Shown piece by piece: positions 5,313 through 59,599 of a DNA stretch of 64,000 nucleotides. Source of the stretch: an uncultured bacterium. Its GTDB lineage: Bacteria; Fermentibacterota; Fermentibacteria; Fermentibacterales; JCC-6. The DNA lies in contig CAZSKU010000001.1 of NCBI GenBank assembly GCA_964607515.1, positions 62,968-126,967 on the forward strand, read 5' to 3'. Position 1 is the stretch's first letter, and the number at the start of each line of letters is the position of its first letter. A program made the position numbers and the translations under genes. The notes under the pieces were generated by a model. The model did no database searches. It was not told the DNA's origin and saw only the letters and a list, made by a program, of their open reading frames with translations.

Positions 5313-6601
5313 GGGGTTTCCCCGGGCCCCGGGATTGTAATCACCGGGATACTTCCGGACAGGGAATCGAGCCATTTCGCGGCATGGTCCGAAAGGTAGA
5401 AATCGTCCATGAACACGACTATGGAAGTCACTCCCTGCCGAAGCAGGTCCTCCTCCCCGGCGCCCTCCCATACCGCCCGGTCCAGGGCCACGTAACCTTC
5501 GGGGTACGAAGCCCTGCTCCGGAGCAGGGCGAGCCTGGGGATCACCAGTTCGTTGGCGGCCACCCTGCCCTCCGGCAGTCGGCCCGCCGCCGATGCCAGC
5601 CCCCGGTCGAGCATGGCCTCCGTTCGCCAGGAATCCAGGGTCTCGGGCCAGGCGAAGATTCCCCCGGCCAGACACAGGGCCGCCAGCAGTGCCCGATTCA
5701 CACCGGGGAAAAGGGATCCCGTCCGGCCGGCGCAGAACGGCACCGCCAGAAGGATCACCTGATCGGCGTACCTGGGGAGCACCAGGCTTCCCATGACCAG
5801 ACCCGTCCAGAGCAGAACCACGTTGATTCCCGCTGGAACCGCCAGTCTCCACCGCCGAAAATCCACCAGCAGCGCCGCGCCGAAGACGGGGCCCAGCACC
5901 GTGATGACCCTCAGAAGGAGCCACGGCGGAAATGTCACAGGATTCGGAGTGCCGTAATCCATGGCGGCCACGCAGTATCTCACCTCCCGGGCTGTCCAGA
6001 GGAGGTCTCCGCAGGCCCCTGCGTTAAGCAGGATCCAGAACGCCAGGGATACCGCCATGACCGCCAGCGCCCAGGGGGAACGCCTTTCCAGGAAATCGCG
6101 CACTCCGTAGATGAACCCCTCCGGGCGAACCAGGGAGGCCAGGGCCGAAGCCCCCGGGGAGCCCCGGCGACAGCCCCAGAGGATGAGTGCCATGAAGGGA
6201 ACCGCAGGACTCCTGGCAAGGCACAGGTTCAGGAACACCGGGTTCGTTCCCAGGAAAACTCCCGCCAGGAGCCCCGGGAAACCTTCGCCGGCTGCCCTGA
6301 CACCGGCGAATAGAGCCATCCAGGCGACCGCCAGCCAGATTACCGTCTCAGGGGCCTTCCATGGAAGGTTTCCAAGGAGACCCAGCAGAAGATCCCCGGG
6401 TTTCGGGACGGTGTTGGGGTAGTACATCGTCCAGTCGTTCACGGTACCGTCCGGCGATATCACCAGGGAGCCTTCATCGGCAATCTGCCCGGCCCACAGG
6501 GTGTGTGCGGCCCGGTCTGAATCCGGCAGGGGGCCCACTGCCAGGGTGACCCCCAGGAGAGGAGCCAGGCATGCTGCGGAGAGGACGAGGGCGCGGGTCA
6601 C
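5309..6601 (-). CDS. Polytopic membrane protein, probable GT-C-type glycosyltransferase
   Basis: About 9-10 hydrophobic segments, a soluble loop after TM1 (D..AHTLWA...YYPNTVPKP), PRY near the last TM and a small C-terminal soluble domain. This is the layout of PMT/ArnT-like enzymes; family not certain. Confidence 0.55.
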   Translation of the reverse strand: MTRALVLSAACLAPLLGVTLAVGPLPDSDRAAHTLWAGQIADEGSLVISPDGTVNDWTMYYPNTVPKPGDLLLGLLGNLPWKAPETVIWLAVAWMALFAGVRAAGEGFPGLLAGVFLGTNPVFLNLCLARSPAVPFMALILWGCRRGSPGASALASLVRPEGFIYGVRDFLERRSPWALAVMAVSLAFWILLNAGACGDLLWTAREVRYCVAAMDYGTPNPVTFPPWLLLRVITVLGPVFGAALLVDFRRWRLAVPAGINVVLLWTGLVMGSLVLPRYADQVILLAVPFCAGRTGSLFPGVNRALLAALCLAGGIFAWPETLDSWRTEAMLDRGLASAAGRLPEGRVAANELVIPRLALLRSRASYPEGYVALDRAVWEGAGEEDLLRQGVTSIVVFMDDFYLSDHAAKWLDSLSGSIPVITIPGPGETP

Positions 6602-6909
6602 CGGGGTTCCACGAACCTCACTATGTGCTCGCCGGGCCGCCCCCAGCCCAGCACCTCCCTCACCCTGGTCTCCATGTAGGCCGAATCCCTCTCGAGCCTC
6701 ACCACGACGGTCTCCAGGGAGTCGAGCCTGGTCTGAAGGCTCTCCACCTCCATCCTGGTCTGAAGCATCTGCAGCTCCAGCCGGCGGTTGGCAAGGAATC
6801 CGTTACGGTTGAAGAGCACCAGGGCGGCGGTGATCAGCAGCAGCACCGCCATGAGCAGTGCGACGTAGCGTCCCCTTCGGGGCTGCCCGGGCTGGTCGGG
6901 AAGGCGCAA
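6598..6909 (-). CDS. ftsB: Septum formation initiator FtsB/DivIC
   Basis: One TM, NG..., coiled coil, YMETRVREVLGWGRPGE; lies immediately downstream of eno. Confidence 0.8.
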   Translation of the reverse strand: MRLPDQPGQPRRGRYVALLMAVLLLITAALVLFNRNGFLANRRLELQMLQTRMEVESLQTRLDSLETVVVRLERDSAYMETRVREVLGWGRPGEHIVRFVEPR

Positions 6910-10219: not shown

Positions 10220-11580
10220 TCCAGTGCCCTTTCCGGCTCCTGCTCCAGCCCGAGTCTTCTCATCCGGGCCAGGAGCGTGGTTCTCTTCAGGCCGAGAAGC
10301 CGGGCCGCCCTGGACCTCACCCCTCCGCAGCTGGCGAGCGCATTTCTAATATAGAGTCGTTCCACCGCCGCGACAATTTCGTCAAGCCCCGCTCCCTCTC
10401 CGGTTGATGGAATGCGATCCGACCCGCCGGGCACTATCCTGGGAGGGAGGTGCCCGGGAAAGACCACCCCTGAAGAGAGGATGGAAGCCCTTTCCATGGC
10501 GTTTTCAAGCTCGCGGACGTTGCCGGGCCAGGGGTATGCCGTCAGAAGCGCCGCAGTTTCGGGGCTGAGACTGTATTCGATGCCTCCGGCGGCGGAATGG
10601 ATTTCCAGAAAATGTTCCGCCAGGGGGATGATGTCCTCCCGGCGATCCCGAAGGGGCGGAACGTGGATGTCTATTACGTTTATTCTGAAATACAGGTCTT
10701 CCCGGAACCTTCCCGCCCTGACCTCCTCATCGAGCCTGGAGTTCGTTGCGGCCAGGAGTCTCACGTCCACCTTCAGGGAGGCGTTGGAGCCCACCGGGGT
10801 TATCTCCCTCTCCTGCAGGGTTCTCAGGAGCTTGACCTGCATTCCCATGCTCATGTTGCCCACCTCGTCCAGGAAAAGGGTTCCCCCCTCGGCGGCCTGG
10901 AATCTGCCGATGGTTGTGGAATGGGCGCCCGTGTAGGAACCCTTCATATGGCCGAAGAGTTCGCTTTCCAGCAATCCCTCCGGGATTCCCCCGGAGTTGA
11001 CGCTCACGAAGGGCATTCCCGCCCTCCTGCTCTGGCGGTGGAGAAGGCGGGCTATCAGTTCCTTGCCCGTGCCGCTCTCCCCGGTGATCAGGGCGGTGCT
11101 TCCGGTGGCCGCCACCTGCCTCACCAGTTCCAGAACGACAGCCATGGCCCTGCTCCTGTAGACTATTCCCTTGCCCGCCGATGACCCCGGGGCTGCCTCG
11201 CCGGAGGTCAGGGCCTTTTCCACCGCCCTCTGGAGCTGGGCCGGGGTGAAGGGCTTCGGAATGTAGTCCACCGCACCGAGCCTGAGGGCTTCCTTCGTCC
11301 CGTCAATCGATGCGTATCCGGTTATCACGATGGCCGGAAGGGCCGGGTACTTGTCCCGGACGATCCGGAGCAGGTCGATCCCGCTGGAGTCCGGAAGTCG
11401 GACATCGGTTATCAGAAGATGGAACCGCTCCCGGCGCAGGCTCGCCAGAGCCTGCCGGGCGGTGGGCGCCGAGGTGCTCTGAAATCCCGATTCCGAAAGA
11501 ACCTCGTTGATGATTTCGACGATCTGCTGTTCGTCGTCCACCACCAGGACCCTGTACCTGTTCTGCGCTTCCTCGCTCAT
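10216..11580 (-). CDS. sigma54-dependent response regulator (NtrC family)
   Basis: Intact receiver (VVDDE, ITDV, PKP), GESGTGKE, GSYTGA loop, LFLDEV, FREDLYFRI, WPGNVRELEN, C-terminal HTH. Confidence 0.95.
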   Translation of the reverse strand: MSEEAQNRYRVLVVDDEQQIVEIINEVLSESGFQSTSAPTARQALASLRRERFHLLITDVRLPDSSGIDLLRIVRDKYPALPAIVITGYASIDGTKEALRLGAVDYIPKPFTPAQLQRAVEKALTSGEAAPGSSAGKGIVYRSRAMAVVLELVRQVAATGSTALITGESGTGKELIARLLHRQSRRAGMPFVSVNSGGIPEGLLESELFGHMKGSYTGAHSTTIGRFQAAEGGTLFLDEVGNMSMGMQVKLLRTLQEREITPVGSNASLKVDVRLLAATNSRLDEEVRAGRFREDLYFRINVIDIHVPPLRDRREDIIPLAEHFLEIHSAAGGIEYSLSPETAALLTAYPWPGNVRELENAMERASILSSGVVFPGHLPPRIVPGGSDRIPSTGEGAGLDEIVAAVERLYIRNALASCGGVRSRAARLLGLKRTTLLARMRRLGLEQEPERALE

Positions 11581-11619: not shown

Positions 11620-12744
11620 ATGACATCTTCATCCCCGGTTTCCCGGGGCCGGTTGTTCACAATCTTGACAATTATCACGGCGATGGCCGGGTGCTCTTCA
11701 CCCCCCTCCGGGGAAGATGTGCTGGTCCTCAGGGCCGGCGACTACGTGGGCATCCCCGAGGATCCCCAGGTTAATCCGGCGCCTTCCGGGGAAGCCCCGC
11801 CGGACACCCTTCCACAGGATTCCCTGCGGACCGACTCCCTGCCCATGCCTGACAGCACATCTCTTTCCGCTGACTCCCTGGCCGTGCCCGAAGACTCGGT
11901 TGAGGTTGCCGAGGACTCGCTGTCCCGCGTGGATGTGGACCTTCCCGGGGGGCTGACTCTCCTGGCGGTGGAGGTCAGGGGGTCGCTTTACGGCAGCCTC
12001 GAGGAAGTCCGGGGCGTCTCCCCGGACGTGCTTGGAGCCCACTGCGTAAGGTACTTGTGGTGGGACATGGATCCGTGGACCGGTCTCATCGCCGGGGATT
12101 CCCTGAGGATTCTCTACTCTGCGGAACCGGGCCTCCGGGAGAACTGCATATCGGCTCTGGAGTACATTCCCGTGGCGGGCTCCTCGAACCGGGGGTTCAG
12201 CGTTTACGTGTACAGGAGGTCTGGAGACAATTTCCCCAGTATCTGGTACTCCGATGGAACCGAGGTGGTAAGACTACTCAACAGGATGCCCCTGTCCACC
12301 TTCGAGGAAGTCACGGGGATTTTCGGTGAGAGGCGCGGTTCAGGGGTGCACCACGGAGTCGATTTCAAGGCCCCCAGCGGTGTGCAGGTCCGGACGGTTT
12401 TCGGCGGAACCGTGAACCGGGTGGACTGGAATATGGAATATAACGGGCGGTGCGTGGAGATAAGAACCCCGGGGGGAAGCTGCGAGGTTTTTCTTCACCT
12501 GGACCAGCTCAGCAGCGGCGTCTCCCCGGGCCGCACGTTGGAACAGGGAAGCCAGGTGGGAACCGTGGGGAACTCCGGGCGTTCCTACGCCAGCCATCTT
12601 CACTACCAGATCAACGATTCCGAGGGAAACCCGGTGGATCCCTACGCGTGCCTGGGATCCAGGAGAAGAAGTCTGGAAGGGGATGACATGGTGCGGTTCG
12701 CCGCGGTGAGGGACAGCCTTGATACCCTTCTTCGGGGGCGATGA
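11620..12744 (+). CDS. M23 family metallopeptidase lipoprotein
   Basis: Lipobox MAGC, acidic D/S-rich linker, HHGVDF, FLHL and HLHY zinc motifs. Start placed at ATG 11620, since the ORF-track extension overlaps the divergent gene. Confidence 0.88.
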   Translation: MTSSSPVSRGRLFTILTIITAMAGCSSPPSGEDVLVLRAGDYVGIPEDPQVNPAPSGEAPPDTLPQDSLRTDSLPMPDSTSLSADSLAVPEDSVEVAEDSLSRVDVDLPGGLTLLAVEVRGSLYGSLEEVRGVSPDVLGAHCVRYLWWDMDPWTGLIAGDSLRILYSAEPGLRENCISALEYIPVAGSSNRGFSVYVYRRSGDNFPSIWYSDGTEVVRLLNRMPLSTFEEVTGIFGERRGSGVHHGVDFKAPSGVQVRTVFGGTVNRVDWNMEYNGRCVEIRTPGGSCEVFLHLDQLSSGVSPGRTLEQGSQVGTVGNSGRSYASHLHYQINDSEGNPVDPYACLGSRRRSLEGDDMVRFAAVRDSLDTLLRGR

Positions 12745-13667
12745 TGGCTGATTTCACCATGATCGTCCCGAACTGGAACGGCGGGTCGGTCCTTCCCGGC
12801 ATGCTGGAGTCGTCCGTCGGACAGGTGGTCCGGGGGAACGGACGGCTCCTGTTGTTCGACAACGGATCGAAGGATGGTTCCGACGGGGATGCCTGTGAGA
12901 AGTACGGAAACGAGCCCTGGTTTTCCATGGTGAGAAGCCCTGTGAACCTGGGCTTCGCCGCCGGGGTCAACATGGCCATGAAGGAGGTGGATACCCGGGA
13001 GGTGGTCATCGCCAACTCCGATACCGTCTTTCTTCCCGGGAGCCTCGACAACCTTCTGAAAGGGCTCCGCAGACACCCCGAGGCCGGGCTCGCCGGGCCA
13101 ATGCTTCTATGGCCGGACGGCCGCCTGCAGGAGTCCATGAGGGATTTTCCGTTTCCCGGGCGGCTGATCGCCGAACACCTGCCCGTACTGAGGAAAAGAT
13201 CCTTCAGGCACCGCGGCCATTCCCTGGAGACCCGATGCGACTGGGTCGTGGGGGCTGTGATGGCGGTGAGAACCGAGGCTTTCCGGGAGGTGGGAGGGTT
13301 CGACGAGGACTACTTCTTCTACCACGAGGAAACCGATCTCCAGTACAGGATGCAAAGGGCGGGGTGGGAGACCTGGCTCATTCCGTCATCCAGAATAATC
13401 CATCTGGAGGGCGCTTCCGCGACGCAGCTGTTTGGTGGGGAAACCTACCTTCGGTATATTCCCGCGAAGCTCAGATTTCTCTCCAAGCATGCGGGCGCCG
13501 GTTCCAGGGCGGCCTTCAGGGGATGGATGTCGGCGCTCATGCTTTGGAGAACGGCCGCCGGGCTGCTGAAGCCCTCCCTGGCCCGAAGGGATGGCCGTTT
13601 CAGGGCATCGTACTGCGGAAAAGCCCTGAAGCTGCTGTTCGGCTCTACTGAACGGAAAATTCTATGA
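12741..13667 (+). CDS. Glycosyltransferase family 2 (WbbL-like)
   Basis: IVPNWN, FDNGSKDG, NLGFAAGVN, NSD, GGFDEDYFFYHEETDL. Confidence 0.9.
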   Translation: MMADFTMIVPNWNGGSVLPGMLESSVGQVVRGNGRLLLFDNGSKDGSDGDACEKYGNEPWFSMVRSPVNLGFAAGVNMAMKEVDTREVVIANSDTVFLPGSLDNLLKGLRRHPEAGLAGPMLLWPDGRLQESMRDFPFPGRLIAEHLPVLRKRSFRHRGHSLETRCDWVVGAVMAVRTEAFREVGGFDEDYFFYHEETDLQYRMQRAGWETWLIPSSRIIHLEGASATQLFGGETYLRYIPAKLRFLSKHAGAGSRAAFRGWMSALMLWRTAAGLLKPSLARRDGRFRASYCGKALKLLFGSTERKIL

Positions 13668-16759: not shown

Positions 16760-17725
16760 TTGCGGGGAAATCCGTTCAATCCGGTGTTTCCCGGGTTTCG
16801 GGTGAAATGGGTGGTCATCGTGGCCGTGGTCCTTTGGTTTCTGATCGCGGGTCCCTTCTACATCGTTGGCCCGGAGCAGGAGGGGGTGGTGCTGACCTTC
16901 GGACGCTACACCTCCACCGTGGGGCCGGGTTTTCACCTGAAGTTCCCGTGGCCGGTCCAGACAGTGTTCAAGCCTCCCGTGAACGTTGTTCAGAGGATAG
17001 AGATCGGCTACAGGTCCATTCCCAACTCCGATCCCCAGCGGTACCGGGGGTTCGATTCCGACCCCGAGATGCTGGCCGAGGCCCAGATGCTGACCGGAGA
17101 CGAGAACATCATAAACGTCTCAGCCATAGTTCAGTACCGGATCAGCGACGCCAGGGCGTACCTTTTCAACGTCCGGGAGCCGGAGGCAACCCTCCGGGAC
17201 ATCTCCGAGGCCTGCATCCGCCAGGTCATCGGGGACAACGCCATTGACGCGGTGCTGACCACGGGCAAGCTGGACCTTCAGAACAGAATCCAGACCCTGG
17301 TGCAGAACCTGGCCGACGGCTACGGCATGGGGGTGAACATCGTGGCGGTGCAGCTGAAGGATGTTCAGCCGCCGGACCAGGTTTTCTTCGCCTTCAAGGA
17401 CGTGGCCACAGCCCGGGAGGACATGCAGGCCTACCTGAACGAGGCGGAGGCCTATCGCAACCAGGTGATTCCAGAGGCCATGGCGGACTCGGTCACCATG
17501 GTGAACGAGGCCATGGGCTACAGCGCGGTGAGGATCAACAGGGCACTGGGCGACGCCAGCCGGTTCACGGCCCTGGCGGAGGAGTACCGGAAGAATCCCG
17601 GCACCACCTCGGCGAGAATGCACCTTGAAACCCTGGAGGAGGTTCTCTCCCGGGTGGACCTGACCATAGTTGACGAGAACGCCGGGGCCCTGACCCATTA
17701 CGGCCTCGGGACGGGAGGCAGGTGA
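16760..17725 (+). CDS. hflK: FtsH protease modulator HflK
   Basis: TM then EQEGVVLTFG, PGFHLKFPWP, MLTGDENII, VQPPDQV..AF.DV..ARED, AEAYRN. Confidence 0.92.
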   Translation: MRGNPFNPVFPGFRVKWVVIVAVVLWFLIAGPFYIVGPEQEGVVLTFGRYTSTVGPGFHLKFPWPVQTVFKPPVNVVQRIEIGYRSIPNSDPQRYRGFDSDPEMLAEAQMLTGDENIINVSAIVQYRISDARAYLFNVREPEATLRDISEACIRQVIGDNAIDAVLTTGKLDLQNRIQTLVQNLADGYGMGVNIVAVQLKDVQPPDQVFFAFKDVATAREDMQAYLNEAEAYRNQVIPEAMADSVTMVNEAMGYSAVRINRALGDASRFTALAEEYRKNPGTTSARMHLETLEEVLSRVDLTIVDENAGALTHYGLGTGGR

Positions 17726-18813
17726 TGAGGAAGCTCGGCGGCTGTGTCCTGTTCCTGATACTCATTGCGGTGGTCCTGGCGGTCACGGGAACCCTCTTCA
17801 CGGTCAACGAAACCCAGCAGGCCGTGGTTCTGCAGCTGGGCAGGCCGGTGAGGGTCATCGTGGGCAACCGCACCCCGGAGGAGATGGCCTCGCTCCAGTC
17901 CTGGATGGAAGCCAACGCTCCCGGCGTGACCCTGACCCGGGGCGCCGGCCTGTACGTCAGGGTGCCGCTGCTTCAGCAGGTCACCCTCTTCGACGACAGG
18001 ATCCTGGAGTACGACGATGATCCGGCGGACGTGGTCACCCGGGACAAGAAACACATCCAGGTGGACTGCTACGCACGATGGAGGATTCAGAACCCCCTGC
18101 TGTTCCTTCGCAGCGTCCGCACCGAGAGGGAGGCACTGGCCCGGCTGGACGACGTGATCTACTCCGAGCTGCGCACGGAGCTGGGCAAGAGCGATCTCAT
18201 CAACATCGTCCGGAGCACGAACGATCCGGTGGGGCTCGATTCCTACGTCCGGCTGGTGAACAGCATCTCCATGTCCGACTCTACCAGGGACATCGTCATG
18301 GCCGGGGGCGAGGTTCTGGAGATAATACCCATGCTCAGGATACCCCCCGGTGAAGGCCGGGAGGCCATTCTGAACCGGGTGACTGAAAACAGCCGCAGGC
18401 TGGCGTCCCAGTATGGGATCCACATAGTGGACATCAGGATAAAAAGGGCCGACCTGCCCCCGGAGAACCAGGCTGCGGTCTTCACCAGGATGCAGGCCGA
18501 ACGCAGCCGGATTTCCACCAGGTACAGGGCCGAGGGGCACCGGATGGCCAGAACGATCCTGGCGGAGACCGACCTGAAGGTGGACAGCATCACCAGTCAG
18601 GCGGAAATGCTGGCGCTTTCAATCCAGGGCCGGGCCGACAGCACTGCCGCGGCGATCTACTCCGGAGCCTACCAGGCCTACCCCGACTTCTACCGGTTCA
18701 CCAGGAGCCTGGAAGCCCTTGAGATGGTGCTTGACTCGACCGATACCGCGGTACTCGGGGCCGAAGGGGTCTTCCGGCTTCTGCTCTCACCCCCGGGGCG
18801 CTTTCAGGAATAG
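17722..18813 (+). CDS. hflC: FtsH protease modulator HflC
   Basis: FTVNETQQAVVLQLG, TRDKK, ARWRI..P, IVDIRIKRADLP, RMQAER, FYRFTRSLEA; overlaps the hflK stop. Confidence 0.9.
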   Translation: MMRKLGGCVLFLILIAVVLAVTGTLFTVNETQQAVVLQLGRPVRVIVGNRTPEEMASLQSWMEANAPGVTLTRGAGLYVRVPLLQQVTLFDDRILEYDDDPADVVTRDKKHIQVDCYARWRIQNPLLFLRSVRTEREALARLDDVIYSELRTELGKSDLINIVRSTNDPVGLDSYVRLVNSISMSDSTRDIVMAGGEVLEIIPMLRIPPGEGREAILNRVTENSRRLASQYGIHIVDIRIKRADLPPENQAAVFTRMQAERSRISTRYRAEGHRMARTILAETDLKVDSITSQAEMLALSIQGRADSTAAAIYSGAYQAYPDFYRFTRSLEALEMVLDSTDTAVLGAEGVFRLLLSPPGRFQE

Positions 18814-20563: not shown

Positions 20564-20676
20564 CCTGGTGGCGGCGCCATTGTTCCCGGGGCCGTCGGGG
20601 GTCATCTTCGGGGTGCCCGGGCCGGGAACCGGCTTACCCCCCTCCGCCCGGTGAACCGATGCATTGGAGGTGCACC

Positions 20677-33194: not shown

Positions 33195-34325
33195 GTGGTC
33201 CTTCTCCCTGTCCTGGCGCTTATTCTGGCCGGGGTCGCCGGGGCAGACGGCCTCGATGCCAGGCTGGAGGCGGCCAGAATCCGACTGGAAGAGCTGCAGA
33301 GCCGTGATTCCGATGCCAGAGAGGTGCTTCTTGCCCTGCATGAGCACCTTGCGGCGGCCAGGGAGTACTACAACGATCTGGTTCTCCGGGAGGCCGGAAT
33401 AACCATGGCCATAGAGCAGCTTGACGGCCGTTGGATGTTGGCTGACTCGGCCCGTTCCATACTCGAGAAGGGGTTGGGGGACTACCTGGTCTACCTCTAC
33501 TCCCAGAGGTCCCGGGTCTCACCGGCCCTGCTGTTCTCCCGGGGGGGCGTCCAGACCCTGGTGCGTCGAAGGGTATACCTGGACCATCTGGCCCGCCGGG
33601 CCGCCATCCAGGTGGAAATCCTCACCCAGAGCGGCGACAGCCTGGCGCACTTCCGGGATTCGCTGGAAACTCTCAGGGAGAGCGTCCGCTCATTGAGAAC
33701 GGAGATGGAAGAGCTTCAGGAGAGGATCTACCGGGAGGAGGAGAGCCAGGCCCTTCTCAGGATGACCCTTCGGGAGGAGATCTCGGCGGCCGCGGAGTCT
33801 GCCGCGGTCCTCGAGGCCCAGAGACGGGAACTATCCGCCCTGGTGGCGGATCTGCGGGTTACCTCCCAGGGCTCCGGGGGAACCGCGGTCGTGCCGGTTC
33901 AACCCGGAGGGGATTCCTACTTCGAGAGGATGCGGGGCGCCCTGTCATGGCCCGGCAGAGGGTCGGTGGTCAGGCGTTTCGGAGTCGAGAGGGATCCGAT
34001 CTACGGCACGGAAACCGTCTGCGACGGAGTAAGCGTGGCCACGGCGCCGGGGGAGACGGTCCGAGCGCTGGCCGGCGGGTCCGTGGTCTTCTCACGGGAG
34101 TTCATGAGTCTGGGGCGCATGGTGGTTCTGGACCATCGGGACGGCTGGTATTCGGTATACGGCCACCTGGGAAACCTGCAGGTGGCCAGGGGCGACTCAG
34201 TGAGCCAGGGGGGCGCTCTGGGAGTGGCCGGACCGTTGCCCGGGGGGAGACCGGGGTACTACCTGGAAATGCGAAGAGGAGCCGAACCTGTGGATCCCAT
34301 GGCCTATCTGGAGCCTCCGCGATGA
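33195..34325 (+). CDS. EnvC-like murein hydrolase activator (coiled coil plus degenerate M23)
   Basis: Signal peptide, long coiled coil, LSWP..G.V...FG, C-terminal M23-like domain in which only YGHL remains of the zinc ligands. Confidence 0.8.
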   Translation: MVLLPVLALILAGVAGADGLDARLEAARIRLEELQSRDSDAREVLLALHEHLAAAREYYNDLVLREAGITMAIEQLDGRWMLADSARSILEKGLGDYLVYLYSQRSRVSPALLFSRGGVQTLVRRRVYLDHLARRAAIQVEILTQSGDSLAHFRDSLETLRESVRSLRTEMEELQERIYREEESQALLRMTLREEISAAAESAAVLEAQRRELSALVADLRVTSQGSGGTAVVPVQPGGDSYFERMRGALSWPGRGSVVRRFGVERDPIYGTETVCDGVSVATAPGETVRALAGGSVVFSREFMSLGRMVVLDHRDGWYSVYGHLGNLQVARGDSVSQGGALGVAGPLPGGRPGYYLEMRRGAEPVDPMAYLEPPR

Positions 34326-38327: not shown

Positions 38328-38330
38328 GTC

Positions 38331-40930: not shown

Positions 40931-42388
40931 ATGCTCAATATCGTACTGGCGCTTCTAGTCCCGGGGGTGTACGACTACACTCCCCTGACCAGAAACCTCG
41001 ACCCGGACTACACGCCGGAAACCATGGAGGACTACCTTCGGTACAGACCCTCTTTCGAACCCCTGAGGGTCACACCCCTGGGCGGGGGATACCGGGGCTC
41101 CCAGTTCCTGGTGGTCCTGTCGGAAGCCATGGCGGACAGCCTGGACCAGGCAGTCATGGACCAGTGGGTCGCCGATATTCAGGAAACCGGCCTTGAAACC
41201 GGTGTCGTGGAGATCACGTGGAGCACCCCCGAGGAGATTCGGGCCTGGCTTTCCGAAATGCATGCCGAAGGGCTTCAGGGGGTGGTTCTGGTGGGGGACG
41301 TCCCTACCGCATGGGCCGCCCTGGAGGACTACGCCGACAACCGCTCGAATGAAACCTTTCCCACCGACTATTTCTACTGGGACCTGGACGGGGAGTGGCT
41401 GGACCAGTGGACCGGCTACCCATCCGGCGGGGTCCCGGGCCCCGACGGCATCTACGACGGCTGGCAGGGAGACCTGATCCCCGAGATCTACGTGGGCAGG
41501 ATCCTGACCAGCGTCATCCTGTACGGCAACCAGTTCGAGCTGGTCGAGAACTATCTGACCAGACTCCACCAGTGGAGGCTCGAGGGGGATCCCGACCCCC
41601 ATGCACTGTGCTACGTGGACGACGACTGGAGCGGATGGGGCCAGGGCTACAAGAACGCCATGAACCTCCTGTATCCCGATGTGGAGCTGGTGAATCAGGT
41701 GGACTCCACCAACGGGACAGATTACCGTTTCAACAGACTTCCCGCGGGGTACACCTGGATAAGCCCCTTCGTCCATTCAAGCCCTGTCGTGCACCAGTGG
41801 AGCCCCGGTCCCAGCACCACCAGCGGCCACATCTGGACCGACCAGCCCCCCAGCCGTTTCTACAACCTCTTCGCCTGTTCCAACTGCCGGTTCACCAGCG
41901 ACTGGTGCATGGGGTGCGTGTACGTTTTCGGCACCCAGACCGGGCTTGCGGCGGTGGGCAGCACCAAGAGCGGCGCCATGCTGCAGTTCAACCAGTTCTA
42001 CGGCCCGCTGGGCCAGGGCGGCACCTTCGGAACGGCAATGTTCCAGTGGTGGGAGTACATTCAGCAGGGAGGCTTCACTCCGGTGGAAATGTACTGGCAC
42101 ATGGGAATGACCCTGCTGGGGGATCCCACAATAGTCCCTGCCATGCACTTCCTGGGTACCGGCGAACAGACCCCCGAACCCGCCCGACTCACTCTCGGCC
42201 CCAATCCATGCCCAGGAACCGTTTTCATCACCGGTCCCGGTGCCATAACGGTGCTGGATCTGGCGGGCAGAACCGTGGCCCGGGGTGAGAACTCTCTTAC
42301 CATCAACGGGCTGGCACCGGGGCTCTACCTGGTCAGGGCGGGCGAGGGGCCGGAAACCCAGACCGGCAGGTTCACCGTAATCCGATGA
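40931..42388 (+). CDS. Peptidase C25 (gingipain)-like secreted protein with T9SS-like tail
   Basis: VLVGDVP, TDYFY.DLDG, YVGRI, putative His (VHSS) and Cys (FACS) dyad, LLGDP; tail PNP..VLDLAGRTV..GLYLVR. Confidence 0.8.
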   Translation: MLNIVLALLVPGVYDYTPLTRNLDPDYTPETMEDYLRYRPSFEPLRVTPLGGGYRGSQFLVVLSEAMADSLDQAVMDQWVADIQETGLETGVVEITWSTPEEIRAWLSEMHAEGLQGVVLVGDVPTAWAALEDYADNRSNETFPTDYFYWDLDGEWLDQWTGYPSGGVPGPDGIYDGWQGDLIPEIYVGRILTSVILYGNQFELVENYLTRLHQWRLEGDPDPHALCYVDDDWSGWGQGYKNAMNLLYPDVELVNQVDSTNGTDYRFNRLPAGYTWISPFVHSSPVVHQWSPGPSTTSGHIWTDQPPSRFYNLFACSNCRFTSDWCMGCVYVFGTQTGLAAVGSTKSGAMLQFNQFYGPLGQGGTFGTAMFQWWEYIQQGGFTPVEMYWHMGMTLLGDPTIVPAMHFLGTGEQTPEPARLTLGPNPCPGTVFITGPGAITVLDLAGRTVARGENSLTINGLAPGLYLVRAGEGPETQTGRFTVIR

Positions 42389-44135
42389 ATGTCTCAACCT
42401 TGTCCCGGTAGATTTCCGGGATCAGGGAAGAGTATTCACGGTACAGGGTAAGCGCATCCGCCATAAACAGGGCTCTTCCGGGATCCGGGGCGTTGTGCGC
42501 CGTTATCACCGCCCTGGAGAAGAGCTCTCCGGCGAGCCCTGGGTCGGATCCGATGAGGCTCTCCGCCAGGGAAAGGATTCGGCGGGCTATCTCCGGGTAG
42601 GATTCCAGCTCCGTTCCCGGAAACAGCTCCGTCCATGGCACGTCCCGGGCCAGGGCTTCTCCCATGGTTCTCAGCGTGTCCCCGGAACCTCCCGAGCCGG
42701 GAGCCCCGTTCAGGGCGTACAGCAACCGGTTCGCATGACCCGCGGGCGCCAGCATGAAGGCCCTTCTCCATGCGGAAACCGCTTCGTCATCCCTGCCCAG
42801 GGTTCCCATGACCGCCCCTTCCAACTCCCAGCCGCCGTGGTACGAAGGGTACAGGCCGATGAATTCCGCGGAGTACCGGGATGACTCCAGGGGATGGCCC
42901 GACCTGAGCCAGCCCCATCCCGCCTGAAGCCAGGCTCTTTCCTCGAAGGGAATCAGCCTGCACGCCTCCCCGGGGTCGCCGTTGCCCATGGCCATCGCCC
43001 TGTACCCGGCCGTCACCGTGATCCCCCAGTAGAGGGAGCCTCCCAGGAGCGCCAGCGGCGCTGCCAGGGGGATCCTGATACTTCTGCCTGGAACCAGACA
43101 GCCCCCCAGAACAAGCGCGGCGGGCAGGGCCCCCAGGGGGGTGGCCAGGGGAAGATCCCCGGTGAAGATCACCCAGAAGCAGCACAGGAGCGCCGCGGAC
43201 AGGGGATCGTGACGGCTGCCTGAAATCCAGCCGAAAAAAAGCGCCAGCATCATCGCTCCCGCGGCTCCGGAACCGGTCAGAAGTTCCAGTGGTTCGGAGT
43301 GCAGGAAGTCCACCCTTCTCTCCGGACCCGCAAGACTCTGGAGTTCTTCACCGCCCCGGGTGTAGATCGAAAGTCTGGCCCGTCCCGTGCCGGTTCCCCA
43401 GGGAAAGGTCTCGAGGAACATGGTTCCGGAGGTTCTCCAGATCACGGATCTGAGCCCCAGGGTTGGGAAGTTCATCCTCAGGGTTCCCGGAAGCAGACAG
43501 AAGGCTGTCTGCCCGGCCAGCATGGCCGCGATGAACAGGCCCGGGCGGGGTGCCCATCTTCGTCCGGCCGCCAGAACCAGCAGACCCATGGCCGCCGCCA
43601 GCCAGGACGTATAGAAGCCGGATACCGCCAGACCGGGAAGGATGAGCCCCGCCTGCACGAAAGCCAGGGCTTTTCTTTTCTCGGCGGCGGAAGCTACGAT
43701 TCCCAGCGCCAGAGCCATGCCGGCCCTGTTGGGATTCCCGCTCAGGGCGTCCGGACCGAACACAGCCATATGTATGGAAAGCAGAGCGGCCGCCCAGGCC
43801 AGGCCGCGAAGGTGGTTTCCGAATCCCCACCGGGCAATGGTTCCCCCGAACCCCGCCGCCATCATTCCGAAGGATGCCCAGCGGACCGCCTGGGGTATTC
43901 CGGGAAGCGGAGAACCCTGGACGAAAAGCCATGCCATGGGAACCAGGGCCATGAGAGCGCCGGCAACCAGGTGGTTTCTGCCGACGAAACCCCTTCCCGC
44001 GGTCAGCAGAGCGGCCCCCAGGGCGGGGTACACCGCGAGCCTGGACATCATGGTGGAGTCGAACAGCCCCGGGAACACCGCCAGGGCTGCCAGTGCGAAG
44101 GGTACTCCGAAGGCCGCGGCGCCGGCGGGGATCAA
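42372..44135 (-). CDS. O-antigen ligase / O-oligosaccharyltransferase-like membrane protein with helical C-terminus
   Basis: About 12 TM segments, GNPNRAG, R..IW, PWGTGTG, FLHSEPLE (conserved His loop of the Wzy_C family). TTG start overlaps the upstream TGA. Confidence 0.7.
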   Translation of the reverse strand: MIPAGAAAFGVPFALAALAVFPGLFDSTMMSRLAVYPALGAALLTAGRGFVGRNHLVAGALMALVPMAWLFVQGSPLPGIPQAVRWASFGMMAAGFGGTIARWGFGNHLRGLAWAAALLSIHMAVFGPDALSGNPNRAGMALALGIVASAAEKRKALAFVQAGLILPGLAVSGFYTSWLAAAMGLLVLAAGRRWAPRPGLFIAAMLAGQTAFCLLPGTLRMNFPTLGLRSVIWRTSGTMFLETFPWGTGTGRARLSIYTRGGEELQSLAGPERRVDFLHSEPLELLTGSGAAGAMMLALFFGWISGSRHDPLSAALLCCFWVIFTGDLPLATPLGALPAALVLGGCLVPGRSIRIPLAAPLALLGGSLYWGITVTAGYRAMAMGNGDPGEACRLIPFEERAWLQAGWGWLRSGHPLESSRYSAEFIGLYPSYHGGWELEGAVMGTLGRDDEAVSAWRRAFMLAPAGHANRLLYALNGAPGSGGSGDTLRTMGEALARDVPWTELFPGTELESYPEIARRILSLAESLIGSDPGLAGELFSRAVITAHNAPDPGRALFMADALTLYREYSSLIPEIYRDKVETFIGLR

Positions 44136-45679
44136 GGGTCCAGCCAGAGCGCCGGATCCGCTGGCAGTCTGCTGAGAAGGCCGGTATTGATCTCCAGGCC
44201 GGCCTCCCGTTCCAGCGCGCCTATCCAGGCCTGCAGCTCCTGCTCCTCCAGCCGCGCCCTGATCCGGGCCTCCAGCCATCCCCTGGCGTCCTGCAGGGTA
44301 GCCTGTTCCCCGGGAAGCACCCGGACCGTGCGGTAGACCATCATGGATCCCATCTGGGTCTCCATGGGACCGTACCAGGCAAGGGTGTCCAGGGGGTCCG
44401 CCGAGAAGACGATGCCTCCCATGGCCTCGGGCACCCGGTCGGCGGTCACCGGCAGGGATACCAGCGAGCCGGTGTCGAAGCCCTCGTAGTTTGAGTAGGG
44501 TTGGAGAAGCCGTCGGAGTTCATCCCGGTCTCCCGAGACCAGAGCTGATCGCACCTCTCCGGTCATGTCCGCCGGCGCATAGCCCATCTCGAGCACTCTC
44601 CGCTGGGGAAGGAGGAGCGGTTCGGCAAGGGATTCGAATTCCGCCTCTATCATCGAATCGGTGACGTTAACCGAAGCGCTCACTCTCTGATCGTACAGGG
44701 CCTCCAGGGCCGCTTCCCTGGCGAAGGCTTCAGCTTCGCGGTGAATTTCACCGGACTCTTCGGGCCATCGCTGCCGGAAAAGTTCAGCGCCGGCCTCCAG
44801 CCTCACCAGGTTGCCGACGAAGTGGAGAAGCCATTCCGGGGAAGCCGGCGACACCGGCGTGCTCAGGGAGGAGAAGGATATTTCCCACCGAAGGTCCTCC
44901 GGGTCGAGGGCGAGCAGTGGACTTCGCATCACGGTGTCTCCCGGAGACGGTTCACCGCCGCCGGCCAGGAAGACCACCAGCGATGTATCCACCCTCGTGC
45001 CGGCCAGGGCAAGGGCTTCCGCTCCTTGAACGATCCGGATGGCCTCCGAGGAAGAGAGCCTGGAGACCGCAAGCCTGCTGATGTACGCGGTGTCCGCAAG
45101 GGATTCCGCCAGCAGGGTGCTGTCGGTGGCCAGCATCGAGTCCAGCATGAAGGTTCCCGTGTCGCAGGATACCCGCTCGCCCGGGGAGGCCTCCGACAAT
45201 GCCAGCGCCAGGTCCCTGGGGAGTTCCGGAAGATGCAGGGGACCCCGGGAGACACCGGTGGACTGGTCCGTGAACCAGACGGTGCGGCCCATGTGTTCTC
45301 TGAAGAAACTGATGTCGTCATCCCCGCACTCCCTGGCCAGGACTGCGGGCAGGGAGTCGGACAGGGCCAGGAACAGTGCGGAGCGGGCCCAGGCCCTCCG
45401 GTACACCCTTATCCTCGAAGACTCATGGATTCCCGATGCGTCCAGTTCCCGGTTCAGAATGAGTTTCCTGCCCAGGGCCTGCAGGAAGGACATGGCCGGC
45501 TCCTCCTTCCCCAGGAAGACCGCCCGGTTCTCCTGCTCAAGTGTCATCCAGGATTCCCCTGCCTCCCTGACGGTCAGGGTGTCCGTGCAGGTCCTCACCA
45601 GCCAGTCGTCGCCGTCCGGGGAACCGCAGCAAGCCAGCAGCAGAAGGGCCGTTGCGGGGAGCATGAACATCTTGAGCAT
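44132..45679 (-). CDS. Lipoprotein, SurA/PrsA-like foldase-type
   Basis: Lipobox LACC; VTDSMIEAEF, YGPMET..G, ATLQDARGWL...L..Q.L..WI..L resemble the PrsA/PpiD scaffold. Catalytic rotamase motifs are weak. Confidence 0.55.
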   Translation of the reverse strand: MLKMFMLPATALLLLACCGSPDGDDWLVRTCTDTLTVREAGESWMTLEQENRAVFLGKEEPAMSFLQALGRKLILNRELDASGIHESSRIRVYRRAWARSALFLALSDSLPAVLARECGDDDISFFREHMGRTVWFTDQSTGVSRGPLHLPELPRDLALALSEASPGERVSCDTGTFMLDSMLATDSTLLAESLADTAYISRLAVSRLSSSEAIRIVQGAEALALAGTRVDTSLVVFLAGGGEPSPGDTVMRSPLLALDPEDLRWEISFSSLSTPVSPASPEWLLHFVGNLVRLEAGAELFRQRWPEESGEIHREAEAFAREAALEALYDQRVSASVNVTDSMIEAEFESLAEPLLLPQRRVLEMGYAPADMTGEVRSALVSGDRDELRRLLQPYSNYEGFDTGSLVSLPVTADRVPEAMGGIVFSADPLDTLAWYGPMETQMGSMMVYRTVRVLPGEQATLQDARGWLEARIRARLEEQELQAWIGALEREAGLEINTGLLSRLPADPALWLDP

Positions 45680-45709
45680 TTTTCAGCCTTTCGATCCGAG
45701 CCTGTCAAC

Positions 45710-45735
45710 AGGAAGGCCCCCGAGGGGGCCTTCCT
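45710..45735 (-). terminator. Terminator-like hairpin after the 45756-46598 gene
   Basis: Perfect 11-bp stem AGGAAGGCCCC/GGGGCCTTCCT with a 4-nt loop; the U-tail is short. Confidence 0.6.
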
Positions 45736-45755
45736 TATCCGGGGCGTGAATGATG

Positions 45756-47946: not shown

Positions 47947-47950
<4 letters not shown>
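46742..47950 (+). CDS. Secreted RCC1-repeat protein with T9SS/FlgD-like tail
   Basis: GGAGG RBS, signal peptide, repeats of AG.FHSL.LR.DG.V.AWG.N..GQC.VP; tail PNPW...[10 protein letters not shown]...VWNG...GIFIVR. Confidence 0.9.
46820..47640 (+). repeat. About seven tandem ~120-bp (40-aa) RCC1 coding repeats
   Basis: Recurrent GGCCAGTG...CCGGAGCCGAAC / CCCAAT / CCGAAC units at roughly 120-bp period; boundaries approximate. Confidence 0.7.
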
Positions 47951-52555: not shown

Positions 52556-53329
52556 CTATTCGAACAGCCTCACGCTTCGGAGAGGCTGAAGGGAGCAGTT
52601 CACCTCGGCGACCAGCAGGGACTCCGGGCTGGTGTAGACCATGGCGGTGAACCGGGCGTAGTGGCCGTCCTCCAGTTGGATGAAGAATCTCGGCGCCGAA
52701 AGCAGGGAGAGGGTGTCGGTCCACAGCGGGCTCTCCGGGTGGGGAGCCTTGAAGGCGTCCCCCAGGGCCGGCGCCAGCATGGCCTGTCTGCCCCCGGGGC
52801 ACCGTCTCGGGTCGGTATGGCCTCCGTAGATCATGTAGCCCATGAGGTCGCGGCTCAGGAAGAAGTCCTGCGGGAACTCGGGGTTTGTAGCGTCCCCCGC
52901 CAGGATGGTGTCAACGCTCAGGGAGAAACCGGGGATGGATTCCTCCGCCGGGGCCACGGCCTGCCCGAGCCAGTTGGTGGCGAGAATGACCCTGGACGAC
53001 AGGGACATGGAGTGGGTGCCGTCCTCCCTCTGGGCCCATACGGCGTAGGTGTGGCAACGGTCGGCCACGTGCTCGCCGGTGGTTCCCCGGAAGTCTCCCC
53101 CCTTGAGCCACATGAACAGGGGGGTGTCGCTGAACCAGAGGCCGTAGTCGTCGATCTCCACGCCAACCGAGTCCCAGGTGAAGAACAGGGTGTCGCCCTT
53201 GCAGGCGTCTTCCCTGAGGGCCAGGCCCGTGACCACAGGCAGGGTTCCGTCGGGGTTCATGGGGCTCTGGGCGTCGCAACCGGCCAGAAACGCCAGAACC
53301 AGGAAAGTTACTAGAGCATGTATTCTCAT
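52556..53329 (-). CDS. Lipoprotein, paralog of 872-1693
   Basis: Lipobox LAGC; GTLPVVTGLAL, FFTWDSV, GGDF..TTGEHVA align with the 872 protein. Confidence 0.8.
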   Translation of the reverse strand: MRIHALVTFLVLAFLAGCDAQSPMNPDGTLPVVTGLALREDACKGDTLFFTWDSVGVEIDDYGLWFSDTPLFMWLKGGDFRGTTGEHVADRCHTYAVWAQREDGTHSMSLSSRVILATNWLGQAVAPAEESIPGFSLSVDTILAGDATNPEFPQDFFLSRDLMGYMIYGGHTDPRRCPGGRQAMLAPALGDAFKAPHPESPLWTDTLSLLSAPRFFIQLEDGHYARFTAMVYTSPESLLVAEVNCSLQPLRSVRLFE

Positions 53330-53384
53330 GGTTGCCCGGCACCTTTCTTTCACACAGGAAGAAACCGCGAGTAAATAACACGAT

Positions 53385-57139: not shown

Positions 57140-58190
57140 CCTGGTGTGCGGCGCCAGACCGAACTTCATGAAAATCGATCCCCTGGTCAGGGCGGCGGGG
57201 TTTCCCCTCAGGATCGTCCACACCGGGCAGCATTACGACCATTCCATGTCCGGGAGCTTCTTCGAACAGCTGGGGCTGCCCCGCCCGGACGTGTTTCTTG
57301 GCTGCGGGGGCGGTTCCGTCACCCTTCAGACGGCCCGGATTATGGAAGCCTACGAACCCGTTCTGGTCCGCGGGGCTCCCGTGGCGGTGGTGGTTGCAGG
57401 GGACGTCAACTCCACCCTGGCGTGCTCCCTCACGGCGGCCAGGCACGGGGTGCCCGTGATCCATCTTGAGGCTGGTCTCAGGAGTTTCGACAGGACCATG
57501 CCCGAGGAGGTGAACCGGGTCCTCACCGACCAGCTGGCGGACCTTCTGCTGATCACCAGCGCCGAAGCCAGGGACAACCTGCTGGCGGAAGGGCGTCCGT
57601 CGGGCTCCATAGTCATGACCGGGAACACCATGATAGACACTCTTTTGAGGCTTGTTCCGGAAACCCGGGGCATTCCGGTTCCTGAAAAGCCATACGGGCT
57701 GGTCACCCTGCACCGTCCGGGCAACGTGGACCGCAGGGAAAGGTTGTCCGAGATCCTGGCCGCCCTGGGGCGGCTGGAGATGCCGCTGGTCTTTCCTGCC
57801 CACCCCAGAACCCTCCGGAACATCTCCGAATGGGGGCTGGCCGGTTCCATTCCGGAAAACCTGAGCATGTCCGACCCGTTTCCCTATCTGGCGTTCGTCG
57901 CCCACGAGCGGAACGCCTCGGTGGTGATAACCGATTCGGGAGGAGTTCAGGAGGAGACCAGCGTGCTGGGAGTTCCCTGCGTAACCGTCAGGCCGAATAC
58001 GGAAAGGCCGGTCACCTGTCTGCTGGGCACCAACCTTCTCTGCCCTGACCCCGCGGGTATACCTGGAGCGGTGGCGGAAAGGCTCTCCCGTTCCCGGGGC
58101 GCTCCCCCGGAGATTCCCTTCTGGGACGGGAAGGCCGGTGTCCGGGCGGTGGAGGCCGTCAACGCGTTTCTGCGAGGAGAAAGAGCATGA
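57132..58190 (+). CDS. wecB: UDP-N-acetylglucosamine 2-epimerase (non-hydrolysing)
   Basis: GARPNFMK, HTGQHYD, GDVNST, HLEAGLRS, PEEVNR, TDSGGVQEE, RPNTERP; TTG start after GGAGG. Confidence 0.94.
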   Translation: MIDLVCGARPNFMKIDPLVRAAGFPLRIVHTGQHYDHSMSGSFFEQLGLPRPDVFLGCGGGSVTLQTARIMEAYEPVLVRGAPVAVVVAGDVNSTLACSLTAARHGVPVIHLEAGLRSFDRTMPEEVNRVLTDQLADLLLITSAEARDNLLAEGRPSGSIVMTGNTMIDTLLRLVPETRGIPVPEKPYGLVTLHRPGNVDRRERLSEILAALGRLEMPLVFPAHPRTLRNISEWGLAGSIPENLSMSDPFPYLAFVAHERNASVVITDSGGVQEETSVLGVPCVTVRPNTERPVTCLLGTNLLCPDPAGIPGAVAERLSRSRGAPPEIPFWDGKAGVRAVEAVNAFLRGERA

Positions 58191-59599
58191 AAATTCTTCA
58201 GCTGGCACCCGCTGTCCTGATGGGGCTGGCCTGCGGGGCGCCCCAGCCCAGGGCCAGCCGGGCGTCCTCGGACCTGCAGAGGTTCGCCGTGGGCCTTCAG
58301 GGGCAGAACGTGGGCTACATGACCATGACGGTGGAGGAACAGGGGGCCGACTCCCTGCTGGTGACCCAGGACATGATGTGGGTGATCAATCTGCTGGGAA
58401 CCGAGAGAAGGGTTACCATGAACTCCTCCGCCCGCACCGGCCGTGACCTGGACCTGGGATACATATCCATGGTGATGAGCGACGGCACCAGCGACATCAG
58501 GGTTTCCGCCGTACGCCGGGAAGGTTCCCTGGAGACGGTTATAGACACCTCCGGCAGACTGATCAACCGTTCCGTGGAATTCGGGGGGGGCTATCTGCCG
58601 GCGTTCATGGACCTGGCGGCCGCCGGAATGCAATGGACTTCCGGGGAGGAACGGGTCTACGACACCTTCGACCCAACCACCGGAACCATCATCCCCGCCA
58701 CGGTCACCTGCCTCGGGACCGAGAAGGCCGACCTCCTGGGGGATACCGTCACCGCGGTGAAACTCCGGGTGAGCACTGCCGGGATGAACAACCTGGTCTG
58801 GGTATGGGAGGGGCAGATCGTCCGCGAGGAGGAACCCGGCCTGGGGCTTGTGCTGACCAGGGTGCCCCCCGGCACCGACGGAGACATCGAGCCCATGGGG
58901 GACCTTTACCTGGTCTATTCGGTTCCCTCGCCGGTGGTCGAGAACCCGCGTTCCGCAGGAGAAAGGACCTGGTCCCTGGAGGGTGAAATAGACTGGACCA
59001 TGTTCACCCTGGACTACCCGGGGCTCCAGTCATCCCGGCCGGGTCCCCTGGTGACCGTGCACGCCGAGCTTCCTCCGGACTCGGCGATCCCCCCCTTCCC
59101 CATGGCGGGATTACCCGACAGCCTGGCGGAACACCTTGTGTCCGAACCCCTTATCCAGTGCGACGATCCGGCGGTGAAGGCCCTGGCCGACAGCCTCACG
59201 GCGGGGGCTGCGAATTCCTGGGAGGCGGTCTCGGCCATATGCCGGTACGTGGACCTGGCGGTGGAGGACGTTCCCACGGTTTCCCTGCCCTCGGCGGTGG
59301 ACGTGCTGGACGCCATGCGGGGGGACTGCAACGAGCACACCGCTCTTTTCGTGGCTCTGGCCCGAGCGGCCGGGATTCCTTCCGCGGTGTGCAACGGGAT
59401 AGTCTACATCGACCACGGCCGGTTCGGTTATCACGCCTGGCCCGCGGTCTGGGTGGGCGACTGGGTAGCCATGGACCCTACCTTCGGAATGCCCGTGGCG
59501 GACGCAACCCACATCATCCTGGCCATGGGGAGCCTGGAGGACCAGTACGCCATCAACGCCGTAATCGGAAGACTGAGCGTCCGGGAGATCCCGGAGTGA
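58187..59599 (+). CDS. Transglutaminase-like domain lipoprotein
   Basis: Lipobox LACG; GDCNEH..LF.AL.RA.GIP, YHAW, MDPT (Cys-His-Asp triad). Confidence 0.88.
   Translation: MKILQLAPAVLMGLACGAPQPRASRASSDLQRFAVGLQGQNVGYMTMTVEEQGADSLLVTQDMMWVINLLGTERRVTMNSSARTGRDLDLGYISMVMSDGTSDIRVSAVRREGSLETVIDTSGRLINRSVEFGGGYLPAFMDLAAAGMQWTSGEERVYDTFDPTTGTIIPATVTCLGTEKADLLGDTVTAVKLRVSTAGMNNLVWVWEGQIVREEEPGLGLVLTRVPPGTDGDIEPMGDLYLVYSVPSPVVENPRSAGERTWSLEGEIDWTMFTLDYPGLQSSRPGPLVTVHAELPPDSAIPPFPMAGLPDSLAEHLVSEPLIQCDDPAVKALADSLTAGAANSWEAVSAICRYVDLAVEDVPTVSLPSAVDVLDAMRGDCNEHTALFVALARAAGIPSAVCNGIVYIDHGRFGYHAWPAVWVGDWVAMDPTFGMPVADATHIILAMGSLEDQYAINAVIGRLSVREIPE

Follow-up and report, generated by a model that had tools for sequence, protein, structure and literature searches.

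Bacteroidota run a general protein O-glycosylation system directed by a short sequon. In their glycoproteomes, Asp is nearly obligatory before the modified residue, Ser is slightly favored over Thr at the modified position, and the +1 position is occupied by L, I, V, T, A, S or M (PMC12871550). Glu at -1 is not tolerated in Bacteroides fragilis, and glycosylation is lost when Gly is engineered into the sequon (PMC12871550). As of a 2025 review, the LFG locus, which contains metG, wzx and glycosyltransferase genes, is the only part of the system to be defined, and the transferase, core flippase and ligase are unidentified; the review counts the origin of the system, its oligosaccharyltransferase, its core flippase and its ligase among the open questions (PMC12871550). 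In the same review, a survey of the motif across all GTDB genera found enrichment "mainly in Bacteroidota", the sister phylum Fibrobacterota "shows a similar enrichment", and an extension of the analysis to that phylum is proposed for tracing where the system arose (Hoffmanns, Svedberg and Mateus, 2025; PMC12871550).

The DNA compared here with these systems is a stretch of 64,000 nucleotides from an uncultured bacterium (contig CAZSKU010000001.1, positions 62,968 to 126,967, assembly GCA_964607515.1), which as a whole is termed the window. Its central element is a gene for an M23 peptidase lipoprotein, the linker of which is packed with D-[ST]-[AILVMT] tripeptides, hereafter sequons. Sequons are genuinely enriched in exported proteins of this lineage, a member of Candidatus Fermentibacterota, and the enrichment is specific and conserved. 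We consider it rather likely that the lineage possesses a general system for the periplasmic O-glycosylation of proteins, of the Bacteroidota type and directed by this sequon, and this type of protein glycosylation thus probably extends to a second branch of the superphylum.

The M23 gene (11620..12744, + strand) encodes a MepM/ShyA-like peptidoglycan endopeptidase lipoprotein of 374 aa, as judged from its translation and Pfam matches. The protein consists of a signal peptide, a short conserved segment, a linker rich in Pro, Asp, Ser and Leu, and a C-terminal Peptidase_M23 domain. The lipoprotein signal peptide (11620..11694) ends in the lipobox AMAG-C, with ITAMAG preceding Cys25, and those of the orthologs are alike. 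The catalytic domain (residues 243-341; 12346..12642; PF01551, E = 2.7e-22) retains the HxxxD (HHGVD) and HxH (HLH) motifs of the zinc ligands. Matches to the NCBIfam families ShyC, ShyA and MepM are weak, with scores far under the equivalog cut-offs.

The linker (residues 62-101; 11803..11922), a proposed densely O-glycosylated stalk, carries seven sequons of the form D-[ST]-[LVT], which start at D62, D67, D72, D78, D85, D92 and D99, and every one of its seven Asp residues lies within a sequon. Three further sequons at residues 160, 365 and 368 bring the protein to ten, so that the recount agrees with the seven and ten given in the preliminary description of this DNA; the peptide quoted there is 41 aa long (residues 61-101) and includes a leading Pro, the codon of which lies outside 11803-11922. 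When the linker residues were shuffled, 0.74 sequons were obtained on average and none of 200,000 shuffles reached seven. Expansion of a DNA tandem repeat was considered as the origin of the linker and was ruled out: Tandem Repeats Finder reported no repeat in the linker DNA and the Ser codons are mixed (TCC, AGC and TCG), which indicates that the linker is not a recently amplified unit.

The excess of sequons is not confined to this protein. The 57 genes of the window were called with a self-trained codon model and annotated with Pfam. Proteins were assigned to compartments by our own heuristics for signal peptides, lipoboxes and transmembrane segments, combined with domain identity, rather than by SignalP, and the expected number of sequons was obtained by shuffling the mature sequence of each protein. 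The 13 exported or periplasm-facing proteins (4,487 residues) contain 46 sequons against 14.9 expected, an observed/expected ratio (O/E) of 3.09 (Poisson p = 8e-11), whereas the 34 cytoplasmic proteins (13,124 residues) contain 36 against 34.0 (O/E 1.06). Sequon excess per protein differs between the two sets (Mann-Whitney p = 8e-5), and 12 of the 13 exported proteins lie above their own shuffle expectation, compared with 16 of the 34 cytoplasmic proteins. The only high cytoplasmic value is that of UvrA, with seven sequons (2.8 expected), and one such value in a set of 34 is not remarkable.

In the exported set, control motifs stay near expectation: O/E is 1.14 for E-[ST]-[AILVMT], 1.16 for N-[ST]-[AILVMT], 0.95 for the reversed motif, 0.93 for D-[AG]-[AILVMT] and 0.96 for [ST]-D-[AILVMT]. 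D-[ST] followed by any other residue is depleted (O/E 0.68). In all, 73% of the D-[ST] dipeptides of exported proteins are followed by A, I, L, V, M or T, compared with 41% of those of cytoplasmic proteins (Fisher p = 1e-4). The window-wide enrichment of exported proteins that had been claimed from hand counts thus holds after control for composition and against E-[ST]-x and D-[ST]-other as control motifs.

The source organism is a member of Candidatus Fermentibacterota (FCB group) and lies outside the phylum Bacteroidota, as its sequence relatives indicate. A scan with the M23 protein against one genome per GTDB species retrieved 34 relatives with 45-72% identity, and those bearing names are all metagenome-assembled genomes (MAGs) labelled Candidatus Fermentibacteria, Fermentibacteraceae, Hyd24-12, Sabulitectum or Aegiribacteria. 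Gene order around the M23 gene is kept among close relatives, and a complete Fermentibacteria chromosome (L047) also has gene order in common with the window. In the NCBI taxonomy, Candidatus Fermentibacterota (= Hyd24-12) is a separate phylum inside the FCB group. These results bear out the earlier impression of a non-Bacteroidota host, as well as that of genes led by Shine-Dalgarno (SD) sequences, an SD-like core being present upstream of 38 of 56 genes against a background of 23%. As Fermentibacterota belong to the same superphylum as Bacteroidota, the host is less exotic than "non-Bacteroidota" implies. Members of Fermentibacterota have never been cultured and are abundant in anaerobic digesters and sediments.

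Across the phylum, 34 Fermentibacteria loci of about 20 kb each (45-69% GC) were analyzed with the gene caller used for the window, and signal peptides were called by an automatic rule. Their 124 signal-peptide proteins contain 436 sequons against 107.6 expected (O/E 4.05), and the ratio is 3.0 when the richest protein of each locus is removed; the 322 cytoplasmic proteins give O/E 1.09. The loci are orthologous neighborhoods and thus show conservation, not independent replication. Two further loci, L039 and L041, were tried as independent test loci and added little, most of their "signal peptide" calls being Rossmann-fold false positives.

These data bear on the possibility that the excess is spurious, an effect of chance, composition or low complexity produced by one repetitive linker and a few hand-picked proteins. 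The linker does contribute seven of the 46 sequons of the window, and the related loci, being orthologous, are not independent samples. However, the 12 exported proteins other than the M23 protein (4,138 residues) still have 36 sequons against 13.4 expected (O/E 2.7; Poisson p = 2e-7), nearly all exported proteins exceed their expectation, control motifs in the same proteins remain at 0.93-1.16, no DNA repeat is present, and the phylum-wide excess persists in GC bins from 45 to 69%. The explanation by artefact is therefore largely refuted and is regarded as very improbable.

The motif itself was recovered without prior assumption. In a tripeptide scan of the signal-peptide set of the loci, in which each position was scanned in turn, D is the only residue enriched at -1, before [ST]-[AILVMT] (4.1; others 0.2-1.3, with E and N both at 1.0). 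At the modified position, flanked by D and [AILVMT], the residues S (5.7), T (2.1) and V (1.5) exceed all others (at most 1.2), and Ser outnumbers Thr about three-fold by count. At +1, L leads the residues that follow D-[ST] (9.1), ahead of T (3.8), I (3.4), V (2.3), A (2.0), M (1.8) and S (1.3), all others being at most 1.1; the disfavored residues include G, R and N (0.2 each), E (0.3) and P (0.4). The exported set of the window itself shows the same pattern, and the same scan of cytoplasmic proteins revealed none of these positional biases. The Fermentibacterota motif broadly matches the Bacteroidota sequon at its three positions.

This agreement is relevant to an alternative in which glycosylation is not what maintains the D-[ST]-hydrophobic motif in exported proteins, and selection acts instead on recognition by a periplasmic chaperone, protease or sorting factor, on another modification of Ser or Thr, or on a structural role in extended linkers, for example. 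The motif obtained de novo matches the experimentally defined Bacteroidota sequon at all three positions; as in Bacteroidota, E is not tolerated at -1, and G, P and charged residues are shunned at +1 (PMC12871550). In addition, the host is related to Bacteroidota, and a coincidentally identical motif with another function would be less economical. The points in favor of this alternative are considered below, together with the E. coli baseline.

Comparison of orthologs provides further evidence that the sequon is maintained. The linkers of 31 M23 orthologs vary from 65 to 107 aa and are hardly alignable, and they still contain 1-10 sequons, with a mean of 5.8; the corresponding means for controls are 0.39 (E-control), 0.68 (reversed motif) and 1.06 (D-[ST]-other). 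Within these linkers Asp is fixed, and Ser and Thr interchange. Mean site conservation is 0.67 for sequons of exported proteins (19 sites, drawn from the M23 linker and body, FtsB, HflK/HflC and an fn3 lipoprotein) versus 0.35 for chance sequons of cytoplasmic proteins (10 sites), both being small numbers. These comparisons indicate that selection acts on the sequon, not on the sequence around it.

In the system proposed here, the Ser or Thr of D-[ST]-[L/I/V/T/A/M] would receive a glycan in proteins exported across the inner membrane. Undecaprenyl phosphate would serve as the carrier on which the glycan is assembled, transfer would take place in the periplasm, and the system would share ancestry with that of Bacteroidota. 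The 40-aa M23 linker, which separates the lipid anchor from the peptidoglycan-cleaving domain, would then resemble a mucin and bear as many as seven glycans; as a stalk of this kind it might be stiffened, extended and shielded from periplasmic proteases.

The machinery for these reactions was sought in the available sequence. The window contains metG (36330-38327, +), which is followed by a single family 4 glycosyltransferase (GT4) gene (together 36330-39503, +) and then by peptidase genes. This pair, which bears a superficial likeness to the beginning of Bacteroides LFG loci, was examined as an LFG-like locus and rejected: wzx is lacking, the adjacency is not conserved, and in more distant Fermentibacteria the GT4 gene follows lpxB-waaA-lpxK-NlpC/P60, a neighborhood of the LPS type. 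The best NCBIfam match of the GT4 protein is partial and is to GlcNAc-phosphatidylglycerol synthase, a lipid glycosyltransferase.

A speculative candidate for the oligosaccharyltransferase or ligase of the system is a polytopic membrane protein of 587 aa (42375..44135, - strand) that ends in a TPR domain at its C-terminus and comes from a family with Wzy_C-matching members. Wzy_C is the family of O-antigen ligases and PglL-type O-oligosaccharyltransferases. The protein has approximately twelve membrane helices, with high-confidence AlphaFold2 models (pLDDT 86.7 for residues 1-390). The window copy has no Pfam match, even at E = 5; 15 of 23 aligned homologs match PF04932 (Wzy_C), the best at E = 7.7e-8. 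The family alignment contains an invariant R254 and an invariant R274-x-D276-x-x-H279 in a periplasmic loop. A Foldseek search of the membrane-domain model against the PDB, a method that is weak on all-helical membrane proteins, gave no match with E < 0.01, and TM-scores were below 0.2. With the full-length model, and in a sequence-profile search of the PDB, TPR proteins were the only matches.

The gene for this protein is one of three adjoining genes on the - strand (42375-46598), which encode a 280-aa exported protein, a 515-aa sequon-rich lipoprotein and the 587-aa membrane-plus-TPR protein. Adjacency of the trio is retained in two distant lineages, the Fermentibacteria chromosome L047 and an Aegiribacteria MAG (L048), where the membrane protein comes first. 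Assignment of the 587-aa protein as the transferase or ligase of the system is speculative.

Several observations weigh against a Bacteroidota-type system in Fermentibacterota. The sample consists of one 64-kb window and orthologous neighborhoods rather than whole genomes, and signal peptides were called by our own heuristic. A metG-wzx-glycosyltransferase locus of the LFG type was not found within the window and could lie elsewhere in the genome. A profile search for the 587-aa family retrieved 34 proteins, all from Fermentibacteria, and none from Bacteroidota or Fibrobacterota at that sensitivity. Some exported proteins are poor in sequons: the 280-aa exported family carries just 1, 1 and 0, and none are present in two lipoproteins of L039/L041, one of the NlpC/P60 type and the other with TPRs. 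Also, in five 50-kb stretches of E. coli K-12 (L042-L046) processed by the same pipeline, 34 signal-peptide proteins contain 46 sequons against 33 expected (O/E 1.40, p = 0.018; D-[ST]-other 0.94), and part of the sequon signal may thus be a general property of exported proteins. E. coli is not known to have general O-glycosylation directed by a sequon. The mild E. coli excess points to a baseline bias, though it is well under the Fermentibacteria values, and cross-phylum surveys of D-[ST]-[AILVMT] should allow for a baseline of about 1.4. Finally, the entire case is made from sequence statistics: those behind the general O-glycosylation proposed in the preliminary description hold in the window and phylum-wide, and the glycan on the sequons is inferred from them.

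Three of these points, namely that the glycan is deduced rather than seen, that an LFG-like locus is missing from the window, and that the E. coli excess of 1.4 reveals some non-glycan bias, speak for selection of the motif for a purpose other than glycosylation. When set against the three-position agreement with the Bacteroidota sequon and the relatedness of the host, they leave such selection an unlikely explanation.

Alternatively, the exported proteins might be glycosylated by a non-homologous system, for example a PglL-type Wzy_C O-oligosaccharyltransferase that converged on a similar acceptor. This idea draws on the conserved membrane-plus-TPR family with its Wzy_C-matching members, the position of the 587-aa gene beside that of a sequon-rich lipoprotein, the restriction of the detected family to Fermentibacteria, and the lack of an LFG arrangement in the available sequence. 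However, the known enzymes of the PglL type lack a defined sequon and favor disordered regions rich in Ala/Pro (PMC12645811), and relatedness within the FCB group favors common descent. As the Bacteroidota transferase is unidentified, homology to it can be neither shown nor excluded. Convergence of this kind is considered quite improbable, and a system descended in common with that of Bacteroidota is preferred.

Two enzyme genes lie directly downstream of the M23 gene. The first is a family 2 glycosyltransferase (GT2) gene (12741-13667, +), whose start and the M23 stop codon overlap, and the second encodes a NodU/CmcH-type carbamoyltransferase (13664-15379, +), both identified by Pfam. Of the 34 loci centred on M23, 29-30 contain orthologs of the two, which indicates that the M23 neighborhood is conserved; a tie between these enzymes and the sequons is unproven. 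The M23-GT2-carbamoyltransferase block is flanked by three regulator genes (8234-11580, -, and 15376-16743, +), which encode two sigma-54 activators, one NtrC-type with a receiver and the other without a Pfam receiver match, and a receiver-HD-domain protein. Their presence suggests control by sigma-54 in the M23 neighborhood.

The sequon-bearing proteins of the window are diverse, and all the hand counts made for them in the preliminary description were reproduced, including zero each for DnaK, AspS and Buk and seven for UvrA. FtsB/DivIC (6601..6909, -; Pfam DivIC) has two sequons in its 70-aa periplasmic part, and both sites are kept in 90-100% of 29 orthologs, with a mean identity of 52%. 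An HflC-like SPFH protein (17722..18813, +; Pfam) has five sequons (1.3 expected), three sites of which are kept in at least 91% of 22 orthologs. Four sequons (0.8 expected) are present in an EnvC-like M23 protein with a signal peptide (33195..34325, +). The 515-aa lipoprotein of the gene trio (44135..45679, -), counted earlier as foldase-like and only weakly similar to SurA/PpiC (Rotamase_2, E = 0.085 only), has eight (1.8 expected), and its orthologs of about 520 aa in L047 and L048 have nine and eight, respectively. A lipoprotein at 52559..53353 (-), previously placed at 52556, has four (1.0 expected), and a transglutaminase-like lipoprotein (58187..59599, +) has five (2.0 expected).

Adjoining ftsB is a gene for a 430-aa polytopic membrane protein (5312-6601, -), which has 18 orthologs in related loci; the window copy has no Pfam or NCBIfam match, and five orthologs have no Pfam match. 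An RCC1-repeat (beta-propeller) protein with a signal peptide (46742-47950, +) has one sequon despite export.

A 567-aa exported protein (20659-22362, +) contains an HExxH metalloprotease-like region (NF045524, E = 2.4e-6) and matches, weakly and below threshold, the T9SS (type IX secretion system) type A C-terminal sorting domain (TIGR04183, E = 0.003), which hints at a T9SS-like cargo signal in Fermentibacterota. A member of the Peptidase_C25 (gingipain) family (40931-42388, +; E = 3.2e-10) has a weak N-terminal hydrophobic segment and 48% identity to its counterpart in L047.

The Fermentibacterota case is valuable mainly for comparative work on how the O-glycosylation pathway of the FCB group originated and on which enzymes are still missing from it. 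If the signature is common to two or three FCB phyla, the likely origin moves back toward the FCB ancestor, and genes common to Bacteroidota, Fibrobacterota and Fermentibacterota but absent from unenriched lineages would form a list of candidates for those enzymes. Other Bacteroidota envelope traits, T9SS and BamG/BamH, are already known to reach other FCB phyla. A broader proposal, that sequon-directed O-glycosylation predates Bacteroidota and is common to several FCB phyla, with the 587-aa Wzy_C-like TPR protein as transferase or ligase, is doubtful at present; if true, this protein would be a handle on the still-unidentified transferase class of the system. It is also predicted that much of the Fermentibacterota envelope proteome is glycosylated, in which case metaproteomic searches that ignore the modification would miss those peptides.

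With respect to earlier reports, no statement on sequon enrichment or protein O-glycosylation in Fermentibacterota was found in the literature, the per-genome values of the survey not being visible in its accessible part, and in the founding paper on the Hyd24-12 genome protein glycosylation goes unmentioned. The preliminary description knew of no account of such a system in a lineage of this kind. For Fermentibacterota this still stands as far as those sources go, but a similar enrichment had already been reported in Fibrobacterota (PMC12871550).

Compared with known proteins, the window M23 lipoprotein resembles the MepM/ShyA-type M23 DD-endopeptidases in its catalytic domain with HxxxD and HxH, and differs from them in that it is lipid-anchored through a long sequon-rich linker and has neither a transmembrane nor a LysM-type N-terminus. 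The 587-aa protein resembles PglL, PilO and WaaL (Wzy_C) in being polytopic, in having a periplasmic loop with conserved Arg, Asp and His, and in the Wzy_C matches of its homologs; unlike them, the window copy lies under every Pfam threshold, carries a C-terminal TPR domain and gives no significant structural match. PglL enzymes also differ from the system proposed here in that they have no strict sequon.

At the level of the whole system, the published account of Fibrobacterota describes a closely similar situation, in which sequons are over-represented in non-cytoplasmic proteins of a non-Bacteroidota FCB phylum, on bioinformatic evidence only. The Fermentibacterota data concern a different phylum and add positional preferences, conservation among orthologs and a sequon-packed linker. 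With the general O-glycosylation of Bacteroidota, known from the LFG system of B. fragilis and from Tannerella, Porphyromonas, Flavobacterium and Prevotella, Fermentibacterota share the same D-[ST]-[L/I/V/T/A/M] sequon, broadly the same positional preferences and the restriction to non-cytoplasmic proteins, and the presumptive targets are likewise many unrelated periplasmic, lipoprotein and bitopic proteins (PMC12871550). The differences are the host phylum, its SD-led genes, and the fact that the proposed Fermentibacterota system is recognized from sequence motifs, with no LFG-type locus in the sequence available. Overall, the Fermentibacterota case is a predicted addition to a known type of system, not a new kind of system.

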